Below are positions 43,701 through 45,667 of a stretch of 64,000 bases of DNA, in pieces (within the stretch, counting starts at the first letter, position 1; each line of letters begins with the position of its first letter). The stretch is from NCBI GenBank assembly GCA_024277205.1, contig JAJRVP010000005.1, forward strand, positions 2,286 to 66,285, in the 5' to 3' direction. Below the pieces are notes generated by a model. That model did not search any database, was not told the origin of the DNA, and saw nothing but the letters and a program-made list of their open reading frames with translations. The position numbers and the translations under genes were made by a program. This DNA comes from an archaeon (GTDB taxonomy: Archaea > Nanobdellota > Nanobdellia > CSSed11-243R1).

Positions 43701-45125
43701 ATGACATTTATATTATTCAACACGCTTGGGAGAAAAAAGGAAGAATTTAAACCGCTTGAAGATAATCTAGTTAAGATATATACTTGTGGGCCAACTGTTT
43801 ACAATTTTGCACATATTGGGAATTTTAGAAGTTATGTTGCACAAGATATTCTAAAGAGATATCTGCTTTACAAAGGTTTCAAAGTAAAACATGTTATGAA
43901 TCTAACTGATATAGATGATAAAACAATTAGGGATAGCCAAAAAGAAGGAATTTCTTTAAAAGAATTTACAGAAAGATATACAAAAGCTTTTTTTGAAGAT
44001 TCTAAAAAACTAAATCTCTTGCCAGCAGATATTTATGCAAAAGCAACTGAACATATTGAAGATATGCGAAAATTAATTCAAATTCTTCTTGATGAAGGAT
44101 TTGCTTACAAAGGAGAAGACAATTCAATATATTACAACATTTCTAAGTTTAAAGAATATGGAAAACTTTCTGGTATAAAAGTTTCTGAACTAAAAGCTGG
44201 AGCAAGAGTAAAACAAGATGAATATGAAAAAGAAGAAGCAAATGATTTTGCACTTTGGAAAGCTTGGACTCCTGAAGATGGAGATGTTTTTTGGGATGTA
44301 AAATTTGTGATTAATGGAAAAGAAGAAACAATTCGCGGAAGACCGGGTTGGCATATTGAATGTTCAACTATGAGTATGAAATACCTTGGGGGTACATTGG
44401 ATATACATGCTGGTGGGGTTGATTTAATATTCCCACATCATGAAAATGAAATTGCTCAAAGTGAGGCAGCAACTGGAAAAATATTTTCAAGGTTTTGGTT
44501 CCACAATGAATGGGTAATTGTGGAAGGGAAAAAAATGTCAAAGAGATATAAAAATTTTTACACCTTACGTGACATTTTATCAAAAGGTTATAGTCCTAAA
44601 GCAATTAGGTATCTTTTAATGAATGCACATTATCGTTCGCAATTAAATTTCACATTTGAAGGACTAAAAGATGCAGAAACAACAGTTAATCGCTTAATAG
44701 AATTTATTGACAAACTTGATGAGATTAAAAGTAGTAATTACAATGGAGACATTAAAAATTTAATTGAAAATGTAAAAGAAAAATTTGAATCTGCGATGGA
44801 TGATGATATCAATATGCCTCTAGCACTTTCAGCAATTCATGAGTTTGTTTCTGAAATAAATAAAGCAATTGCTCAAGGAAATTTTGATGAAAAGAATGCA
44901 AAAGAAGTAAAAAGTATTATGTTGGAGTTTGACAAAGTTTTAGGTGTATTAGAGCATGAAAAAGTTGAAGTTCCAGAAGAAATTAAAAAACTTATCGAAG
45001 AAAGAGAAAATGCGAGAAAAGAAAAGAACTTCAAAAAATCAGATGAAATCCGCGAAAAGATTAGACAAATGGGTTGGGAAGTCCAAGATACACCAGAAGG
45101 ACCAAAGGTAAGAAAGAGATTGTAA
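43701..45125 (+). CDS. cysS: Cysteinyl-tRNA synthetase
   Basis: CGPTVY..AHIGN, DFALWK, GRPGWHIEC, HAGGVDLIFPHHENE, KMSKR. Confidence 0.97.
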   Translation: MTFILFNTLGRKKEEFKPLEDNLVKIYTCGPTVYNFAHIGNFRSYVAQDILKRYLLYKGFKVKHVMNLTDIDDKTIRDSQKEGISLKEFTERYTKAFFEDSKKLNLLPADIYAKATEHIEDMRKLIQILLDEGFAYKGEDNSIYYNISKFKEYGKLSGIKVSELKAGARVKQDEYEKEEANDFALWKAWTPEDGDVFWDVKFVINGKEETIRGRPGWHIECSTMSMKYLGGTLDIHAGGVDLIFPHHENEIAQSEAATGKIFSRFWFHNEWVIVEGKKMSKRYKNFYTLRDILSKGYSPKAIRYLLMNAHYRSQLNFTFEGLKDAETTVNRLIEFIDKLDEIKSSNYNGDIKNLIENVKEKFESAMDDDINMPLALSAIHEFVSEINKAIAQGNFDEKNAKEVKSIMLEFDKVLGVLEHEKVEVPEEIKKLIEERENARKEKNFKKSDEIREKIRQMGWEVQDTPEGPKVRKRL

Positions 45126-45162
45126 ATCTAAATAAAATGTCTAATAAGAAGTTGCGAGTGTG

Positions 45163-45193
45163 TTTTTGGTGCAGCTTTTTTCTAAAAAGCTGC
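45163..45193 (-). repeat. REP-like palindromic repeat, copy B
   Basis: Internal palindrome GCAGCTTTTT...AAAAAGCTGC; inverted copy of 43421-43451. Confidence 0.8.
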
Positions 45194-45235
45194 AAGGAAA
45201 AGAATTTAAAACAAACCTTTCTATTTTTAATTTAA

Positions 45236-45391
45236 GCGGGGTTGGCAGAGCAGCTATGCGGCGGACTGCAGTTCGTCAGCGGCGGATCTGGCTGAGGCGC
45301 CCGATGATGTGAAGAGATCCGTTCAGGGGGGTGCGACAAGCCGAACCTGGGCGATTCCTCTTAGATTCGCTCGCTATTCCCCCACCCCGCT
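45236..45391 (+). tRNA. trnC: tRNA-Cys(GCA) with two introns (37/38: 45272-45316; 59/60: 45338-45377)
   Basis: Acceptor stem GCGGGGT/ACCCCGC, U73; anticodon stem GCGGA/TCCGT with CT-GCA-G; T-stem G5/C5; relaxed BHB motifs at both introns; TATA at 45205; oligo-T after the gene. Confidence 0.9.
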
Positions 45392-45412
45392 TTTTAGTTA
45401 AATGGTGGTAAA

Positions 45413-45667
45413 ATGGAAGCAAAGATAATCTATAACTGGGATGAATTCCAAAGGGAATTTGAAAAACTTGAAGAGCCAAAATTCTACATAAATCTTGATA
45501 CAAGTGACAAAGGAAATGTTTTAAGAATATATGCAGAAACAAAAGATGTTGTCTTAATATTCGAGCCCGAGGACATGGACTTAAGAAAGTGGAAGAAAAA
45601 GCTTGATGATATGAACATTGAGTACAAATGGGGGAAAAGCCCTGTAAAGATAATTGAAAATGGATGA
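45413..45667 (+). CDS. Small hypothetical protein
   Basis: 84-aa ORF with a GGTGG SD. Confidence 0.65.
   Translation: MEAKIIYNWDEFQREFEKLEEPKFYINLDTSDKGNVLRIYAETKDVVLIFEPEDMDLRKWKKKLDDMNIEYKWGKSPVKIIENG

Follow-up and report, generated by a model that had tools for sequence, protein, structure and literature searches.

Reviews up to 2024 give tRNA-Trp as the one case in which an intron guides the modification of its own tRNA (PMC4090602, PMC11408192), the nucleotides concerned being C34 and U39 (PMC4090602, PMC11408192, PMC7994747 and PMC2584109). The elongator tRNA-Met intron of Nanoarchaeum equitans is a tentative second case (PMC3491384). Here we describe a tRNA-Cys(GCA) gene whose first intron combines a kink-turn (K-turn) carrying C/D-type boxes with a segment complementary to the same tRNA. 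The gene lies on the forward strand of a 64,000-nucleotide stretch of DNA from an archaeon of the Nanobdellota (GenBank assembly GCA_024277205.1, contig JAJRVP010000005.1, positions 2,286 to 66,285), the whole of which we call the window. Judging from the sequences of this gene and its relatives, the chances are about even that the intron, located between nucleotides 37 and 38, acts as a natural half-mer box C/D guide through which nucleotide 38 or 39 is methylated ahead of splicing. Our literature search turned up neither a published case in tRNA-Cys nor any description of K-turns in the tRNA introns of DPANN archaea, in line with a preliminary description of the window, which knew of no tRNA-Cys case.

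The tRNA-Cys gene (45236..45391, + strand) was delimited by direct reading and by comparison with homologous tRNA-Cys genes, and contains two introns. Its exons cover 45236-45271, 45317-45337 and 45378-45391, with the anticodon GCA at 45268-45270 and the discriminator U at 45391; CCA is not encoded. The acceptor stem reads GCGGGGU/ACCCCGC and the anticodon arm GCGGA-CUGCAGA-UCCGU. Intron 1 (45272..45316, + strand, 45 nucleotides) follows G37 at the canonical 37/38 position, which is also the position of the introns in four related genomes (G003, G039, G024 and G037; such handles are used below where genomes or loci need to be told apart). Direct reading gives the order guide, CUGA, GG(CGC)CC hairpin, GAU bulge and GAUGU, in exact K-turn register. 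The guide (45281..45290) takes up positions N11 to N2 counted from the box D'-type CUGA (45292..45295), which forms the non-bulged K-turn strand. The C stem GG/CC with its CGC triloop (45296..45302) is the variable D'-to-C' linker, and is followed at 45303..45310 by the GAU bulge (45303-45305) and the box C'-type AUGAUGU (45304-45310). The sheared tandem pairs G35.A24 and A36.G23 (intron numbering) lead into U.U, G-C and U.G. Compared with the box consensus, RUGAUGA for C and CUGA for D, AUGAUGU matches at six of seven positions; its final U pairs with N1 (G45291). The intron closes with GAAG, the 3' strand of the central helix of a possible bulge-helix-bulge (BHB), and with AG as its last two nucleotides (together 45311..45316). 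No second RUGAUGA or CUGA is present in the 45 nucleotides, leaving one motif and one guide. The K-turn, its boxes and the single-motif design are thus where the preliminary description had placed them.

The guide is antisense to nucleotides on the 3' side of the anticodon loop and stem. Its target strand (45317..45323, + strand) comprises nucleotides 38-44, with A38 at 45317; of these, 39-43 also make up the anticodon stem on its 3' side. A38 is opposite U45287, which is N5 of the guide, the fifth nucleotide before CUGA. As previously described, 45282-45290 pairs over 9 bp (one of them G.U) with nucleotides 35-43 of the spliced tRNA; counting G45281.U44, the duplex reaches 10 bp, from N2 to N11. 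In the unspliced precursor, N3-N11 pairs with 45315-45324 (the last two intron nucleotides and 38-44) in 9 pairs, the terminal AG of the intron pairing with N3 and N4. No guide complementarity to C32-A36 was found by direct reading.

A second fold competes for the same nucleotides. Pairing between CGUCA (45274..45278) and UGAUG (45305-45309), which the preliminary description also saw, could give a BHB at the splice sites its outer helix, and this helix excludes the K-turn. In the BHB central helix, C32-C35 (CUGC) and GAAG form three of four pairs, with one G.A mismatch. Under a nearest-neighbour model of the 62-nucleotide arm, the forced BHB fold and the forced guide fold have the same energy, -18.2 kcal/mol. 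The guide fold is the free minimum in three relatives (G024, L172 and G418), and the junction-spanning helix is part of the free minimum in two more (G003 and G037).

At least eight other genomes, drawn from two DPANN classes, show the same layout in their tRNA-Cys introns, and it recurs on 16 metagenome contigs. Among 401 genomes of the class, a D-arm pattern for tRNA-Cys that carries no intron information matched 16, in 15 cases at a tRNA-Cys gene. Three of these genes have introns with CUGA...AUGAUGU (the genome carrying the window, G000; G003 from the same family; G039 from another), and in three more the layout is kept while box D' reads AUGA or AAGA (G001 and G002 from the genus of G000, and G029). 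Four others are intron-less, four carry other introns and the last, in G054, has GA-rich motifs that could not be placed in register. A covariance model, R1, gave 25 matches in 151 relatives, ten of them partial matches of 16.8 bits or less. G000, G003 and G039 were already known; among the 12 others that were inspected, nine lie in AT-rich, apparently coding DNA, and three are real, namely the tRNA-Cys introns of G024 and G037, which represent two further families, and a tRNA-Leu(CAA) intron in G017. Run on 151 genomes of the class to which locus L119 belongs, R1 identified K-turn tRNA-Cys introns in G410, G418 and G547. A broad scan of species genomes returned 121 tRNA-Cys-like matches from many archaeal phyla, mostly intron-less, and only L119 has the boxes. 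A metagenome scan that required the boxes returned 26 stretches. Of these, 16 proved to be tRNA-Cys genes, 15 being of the same type as L119 and the remaining one identical in sequence to G039.

Some of these genes have further introns. An extra intron at 30/31, in the 5' strand of the anticodon stem, accompanies the K-turn intron in G002 (L038), G001 (L039), G410 (L225) and G547 (L226), and the tRNA-Cys gene of G418 has one in the D loop. The tRNA-Thr(UGU) intron of G418 (L229, C1:26633-26670) contains two CUGA plus UGAUGA-like motifs and a stretch complementary to 38-43, in a register that is not settled.

Box D' is CUGA in all 17 introns with canonical boxes from other genomes; in the same 17, box C' consists of UGAUG plus U, C or G. 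The linker between them is 8 nucleotides in G000, 7 in G003, 6 in G039 and 3-7 elsewhere (3-4 in 8 of the 14 introns that could be parsed), with unrelated sequences. On both strands of the 684-kb host genome (1.37 Mb), CTGA-N2-12-RTGATG occurs 18 times, and the copy in the tRNA-Cys gene is the only one situated in a G+C-rich (structural RNA) island. A leave-one-out covariance model of 17 introns, all from other genomes (R2), finds the tRNA-Cys intron as its sole match over the whole host genome, at full length, with 23 bits and an E-value of 5e-4; R1 scores intron 1 at 41.4 bits. Scanning the host genome for other sites with at least nine Watson-Crick pairs to the guide found none, and no 8-mer was found on the rRNA contigs. 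A target scan that allowed G.U pairs gave 622 matches in this genome and was too noisy to use.

Covariation between guide and target was measured in a 20-row alignment of related sequences fitted to the covariance-model structure. In it, 94.0% of cells are paired, compared with 28-41% when the partners are slid by one to three columns, and the covariation score is 0.270, compared with 0.038-0.075 after sliding; none of 500 shuffles reaches the observed value. Five of 11 pairs change on both sides. The pair between N1 and position 7 of box C' is G.U in 17 rows, A-U in two and G-C in one. In both the MAFFT alignment (A1) and the model-fitted one (A2), G039 is one column out of register, and its mismatches there are artefacts of the alignment that count against the structure. 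The anticodon stems vary by lineage (AUCCGU, CCCGAU, ACCGGU, ACCGAC) and the guides track them. Covariation with the guide extends to nucleotide 38, which the anticodon stem leaves unpaired; the guide-to-target pair is U:A in G000 and G:C in G039. The check on homologues that the preliminary description had outlined therefore favours it: the boxes are conserved and the guide covaries with the anticodon stem.

These data bear on the idea that the intron no longer functions and is a decaying relic, derived either from a former C/D sRNA with two guides or from a duplication of part of the anticodon stem. An exact 8-nucleotide direct repeat, GCGGCGGA, does occur at 45258-45265 and 45279-45286, only one motif remains, the tRNA introns of the host genome are highly mobile, and the tRNA-Cys gene of G496 has a 13-nucleotide intron that resembles a deletion remnant of the boxes. 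Yet boxes, register and complementarity are kept across two classes while the sequences of linker and stem change, with compensation at five pairs. Nor is the guide a mere copy of the 5' stem strand: it departs from that strand exactly where pairing with nucleotide 38 requires, the guide of G039 having G facing C38 where the exon has C32. We regard loss of function as very improbable. As to the repeat itself, one copy covers parts of the D stem, nucleotide 26 and the 5' strand of the anticodon stem and the other lies in the guide; complementarity demands five of its eight nucleotides and not the other three.

The relatives also indicate which form of the tRNA is the partner. Precursor and spliced duplexes were compared in the 14 of 18 introns that could be parsed, while those of G547, G017, G001 and G002 were read by eye; the spliced row for G410 is wrong, as its 5' exon is interrupted by another intron. 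In 12 of the 14 parsed introns the guide forms a longer duplex with the unspliced precursor than with the spliced tRNA. In addition, the guide nucleotide that faces the last intron nucleotide covaries with it (A-U in 11, G-C in five and C-G in two). Together, these two observations point to the pre-tRNA, across the 3' intron-exon junction, as the partner. The guide is thus predicted to act on pre-tRNA with no need for prior splicing, which runs counter to the earlier proposal of a guide that targets the spliced tRNA and cannot form until splicing has taken place.

A related alternative meets the same evidence. In it the intron, once excised and probably circularised, would persist as a stable small RNA and direct the methylation of spliced tRNA-Cys in trans. 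In its favour, the spliced duplex is longer in G000 (10 versus 9) and in L191 (9 versus 7), the only two such cases; excised archaeal tRNA introns are known to circularise (PMC7994747 and PMC3491384); and the tRNA-Trp intron guide acts in trans in vitro (PMC4090602 and PMC2584109). However, in 12 of 14 introns the spliced tRNA is mismatched at N3 or N4 (G37 against A or G), beside the presumed target, where the precursor duplex is unbroken. The last intron nucleotide, with which the guide covaries, is lost from the spliced tRNA, and nucleotides 39-43 are locked in the anticodon stem of the mature molecule. A trans-acting intron therefore seems unlikely to us.

Under the half-mer reading, the guide would first pair with the last two intron nucleotides and 38-44 in the unspliced precursor, a pairing for which the covariation speaks, and would thereby displace the 5' strand of the anticodon stem and bury the 3' splice site. 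L7Ae would then bind the K-turn and recruit Nop5-fibrillarin, and the ribose opposite the fifth guide nucleotide would be 2'-O-methylated, which is A38 in G000 and C39 in most relatives. Finally, the arm would refold to the BHB, the two folds being about equally stable, with box C' pairing with CGUCA, and EndA and RtcB would excise the intron. One may speculate that two precursors on one Nop5 dimer supply the two-sided architecture of ordinary C/D RNAs. In this scheme the tRNA-Cys element would work like the C'/D' half of a C/D sRNA.

The required proteins are encoded. G000 (684 kb, 21 contigs, 32% G+C, 92% estimated completeness) has genes for fibrillarin (270 bits), Nop5 (178.9 bits) and L7Ae (97.5 bits), all above the Pfam cut-offs, and for EndA and RtcB. 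Fibrillarin is found in 98 of 151 relatives, including all nine genomes that have a K-turn intron. The search of the relatives found it in none of seven genomes of family f11, none of four of f21, none of three of f27, none of five of f30 and one of 17 of f16, and in f11 the tRNA-Cys genes are intron-less or carry other introns. This co-occurrence lends weak support to a guide function, the genomes being related and not independent.

A comparable design is present in another tRNA of the same lineages. The tRNA-Trp(CCA) gene of G000, located outside the window (C1:331-535, - strand; L230:32-236), has three introns, in the D arm, at 37/38 and in the T loop. Its 37/38 intron is 58 nucleotides long and consists of guide, CUGA, GCC(CAUUGC)GGC, AAU and GAAGA. 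This one-K-turn design is common to G000, G002, G003, G006 and G024, with box D' being CUGA in two genomes and AUGA in three, and C34 faces N5 in all five. The one-K-turn intron guides of these lineages thus appear to follow the N+5 rule, at least for tRNA-Trp. No guide for U39 was found in the G000 tRNA-Trp intron. A second CUGA near its 3' end was rejected as a box D, as relatives read AUGA, AUGU or GUGG there and the motif overlaps the strand of the BHB central helix. The T-loop intron of this gene (C1:~341-404) is a member of a recurring family of hairpin introns, which occupies at least 15 further places in G000 and has copies in relatives, and a related recurrent motif, GCACCCUUU...AAAGCGUGCACGGAAAG, fills the 37/38 introns of several other G000 tRNAs. 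The tRNA-Cys and tRNA-Trp intron guides are the only C/D-like RNAs recognised in G000. Strict patterns for two-guide C/D sRNAs gave no matches in this genome, and a search for box C...D with a terminal stem gave seven, none of them convincing and five inside long open frames; these are crude scans that do not show absence.

Several points weigh against guided methylation by the tRNA-Cys intron. The main one is that the nucleotide at N+5 differs between introns. It is nucleotide 38 in three of the 14 parsed introns (G000, G003 and G039) and C39 in the other 11, where nucleotide 38 faces N4. In the tRNA-Leu(CAA) intron of G017 (L203, C1:199141-199181), whose K-turn layout is the same apart from two additional nucleotides that separate the helix from box D', nucleotide 38 faces N6 and N5 faces the last intron nucleotide; methylation at that nucleotide would block the 2'-OH used in 3' splice-site cleavage. 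The A38 target given by the preliminary description therefore holds for G000 but is not general. It is the other side that is fixed, as all 14 parsed introns have the same spacing from box C' through four nucleotides (the BHB strand) and two more to the splice site, whereas a one-site methylation device is expected to keep its guide-side spacing. In the tRNA-Trp guides of these lineages N5 always faces C34, while the tRNA-Cys register varies. Box C' of intron 1 ends in U instead of A, the pair counts come from an alignment fitted to the model structure with related sequences, and no ordinary two-guide C/D sRNA was found by the crude scans of G000 despite its fibrillarin, Nop5 and L7Ae. Lastly, there is only a single K-turn, and a single-site archaeal C/D complex is active in vitro but not site-specific (PMC1635284).

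The register variation may mean that targets truly differ between lineages, and Am38 has been observed in some tRNAs of Pyrococcus furiosus (PMC7668247). Alternatively, the extra nucleotide may be looped out. A one-sided complex may also be less site-specific, by analogy with the reconstituted hemi-complex (PMC1635284).

The same pattern raises the main rival possibility, which on the sequences we consider real though not probable, that the K-turn hairpin is an L7Ae-binding structural switch that involves no methylation. Such a switch could serve as a chaperone, as a timer or as a gate that orders the processing of several introns, with the pairing to 38-43 and the 3' splice junction keeping the precursor unspliceable or preventing its misfolding. 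What is conserved would suit this role, namely the K-turn, the 3'-junction helix and the spacing from box C' to the splice site, while the distance that sets methylation varies (N4, N5 or N6 at nucleotide 38). The guide and BHB folds are mutually exclusive and about equally stable, and several hosts (G000, G001, G002, G410 and G418) have further introns to be ordered. However, canonical CUGA and UGAUG(U/C/G) are kept in 17 of 17 introns where a bare K-turn with tandem G.A pairs needs less, and the hosts G003, G039 and L119, with a single intron, also carry the element. The corresponding design in tRNA-Trp sets C34 at N+5 in five of five genomes, which argues for guidance of fibrillarin, and fibrillarin is present in nine of nine genomes with such an intron.

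Guide and switch need not be separate functions. A broader proposal, which we put forward tentatively on the same comparative grounds, is that natural one-K-turn (half-mer) C/D ribonucleoproteins in pre-tRNA introns are at once methylation guides and splicing gates, forming a checkpoint that places modification before splicing. If so, the guide helix would conceal the 3' splice site together with the anticodon stem's 3' strand, and splicing would proceed only after L7Ae, Nop5 and fibrillarin have bound, acted and left. At least two DPANN classes would have kept the checkpoint in tRNA-Cys, and it would be part of a wider set of self-targeting intron guides, including those of Trp and Leu described here. 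Such guides may then be the main, or the only recognisable, C/D guides in reduced genomes.

ARAGORN does not call the tRNA-Cys gene, either in the window or in the genome with intron search. It does so after both introns are removed in silico, with intron 2 cut at either 59/60 or 58/59, and does not when intron 1 alone is removed and intron 2 is left uncut. Intron 2 (about 45338..45377, + strand, 40 nucleotides) lies in the T loop at 59/60, although 58/59 fits equally. Its removal leaves the T loop UGCGACU, the same as in G032, G159 and G079, with G at position 55 where U is usual. Rfam has no match on the gene or its introns at the gathering threshold, nor with E-values up to 10 in 45000-45600, where the sole row of a C/D family is ceN28 (14.3 bits, 45489-45575), downstream of the gene. 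Only about 11 tRNAs are detectable in G000 and genome searches found no second tRNA-Cys gene in it; the only one found thus escapes both ARAGORN and Rfam. For context, cysS, which encodes cysteine--tRNA ligase (43701..45125, + strand; TIGR00435, 477.9 bits), ends 110 nucleotides upstream. Reading frames in many relatives place cysS directly before or after tRNA-Cys, and this pairing of gene and tRNA is apparently conserved.

Like a C/D sRNA, intron 1 has boxes placed for a K-turn or K-loop and a guide directly upstream of box D/D' with a defined N5 partner (9-10 bp, A38); it lacks the bipartite C/D plus C'/D' arrangement with two guides of about 12 nucleotides and matches no curated Rfam C/D family. 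Like the pre-tRNA self-guide of tRNA-Trp, it is located in the 37/38 intron of its target tRNA and its duplex spans an exon-intron junction, with the reservation that both substrates fit in G000 (9 versus 10). Its host is tRNA-Cys with one guide, not tRNA-Trp with targets C34 and U39. Both guide duplexes of pre-tRNA-Trp are said, from work by Clouet d'Orval in 2001, to span an exon-intron junction.

The euryarchaeal pre-tRNA-Trp guide (Haloferax volcanii and Pyrococcus sR50; Clouet d'Orval 2001, Singh 2004) is likewise carried by a 37/38 intron with C/D-type boxes that is antisense to its own tRNA. Its target 39 is also the N+5 nucleotide in most of the tRNA-Cys relatives, and its methylation occurs on the unspliced precursor, as we propose for tRNA-Cys. 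It differs in having both C/D and C'/D' with two guides, where tRNA-Cys has one K-turn and one guide, and in its length (about 65-105 nucleotides versus 30-45). The tRNA-Cys intron has no C34 guide, and its strict N+5 nucleotide in G000 is A38. Also comparable are the tRNA-Trp introns of G000, G002, G003, G006 and G024, which share the D'-type box (CUGA or AUGA), the small hairpin, the A/G-A-U bulge, the GA, the guide directly upstream and the same protein set, and whose duplex extends into the first intron nucleotides in G000, G002 and G006. These guides aim at the 5' exon (C34), whereas those of tRNA-Cys aim at the 3' exon in a variable register.

The N. equitans elongator tRNA-Met intron (Randau 2012, PMC3491384) is likewise of DPANN type, has a host other than tRNA-Trp and C/D-like boxes, and accumulates as a stable RNA. 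It differs in its 66 nucleotides, in the usual order of a box C variant and box D, and in that its target is not shown there. Work on synthetic half-mer C/D ribonucleoproteins (Hardin and Batey 2006, PMC1635284; half-mer crystal structures to which PMC3608112 refers) indicates that one K-turn and one guide suffice for the assembly and activity of L7Ae, Nop5 and fibrillarin. Those are engineered and trans-acting, and the single-site complex lost its site specificity (PMC1635284). The tRNA-Cys element, in contrast, is natural and resides inside its own substrate, six nucleotides from the target strand. It also resembles the archaeal K-loop in its order of D' then C' with a short linker (3-4 nucleotides in 8 of 14 for tRNA-Cys), but the G000 linker is a 2-bp stem with a triloop, forming a true K-turn hairpin. 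The K-loop, the C'/D' motif of archaeal C/D sRNAs, was reportedly the subject of work by Nolivos in 2005.

If the half-mer reading is right, self-guidance by introns would be wider than described and could target the anticodon loop and stem on their 3' side. A single K-turn would also be enough for it, which bears on whether activity and site specificity require both the C/D and the C'/D' motif. A guide role would explain why such introns are retained in very small genomes. As a natural fusion of half-mer guide and substrate in 30-45 nucleotides, the tRNA-Cys element offers a test case for the one-motif question that the synthetic complexes pose.

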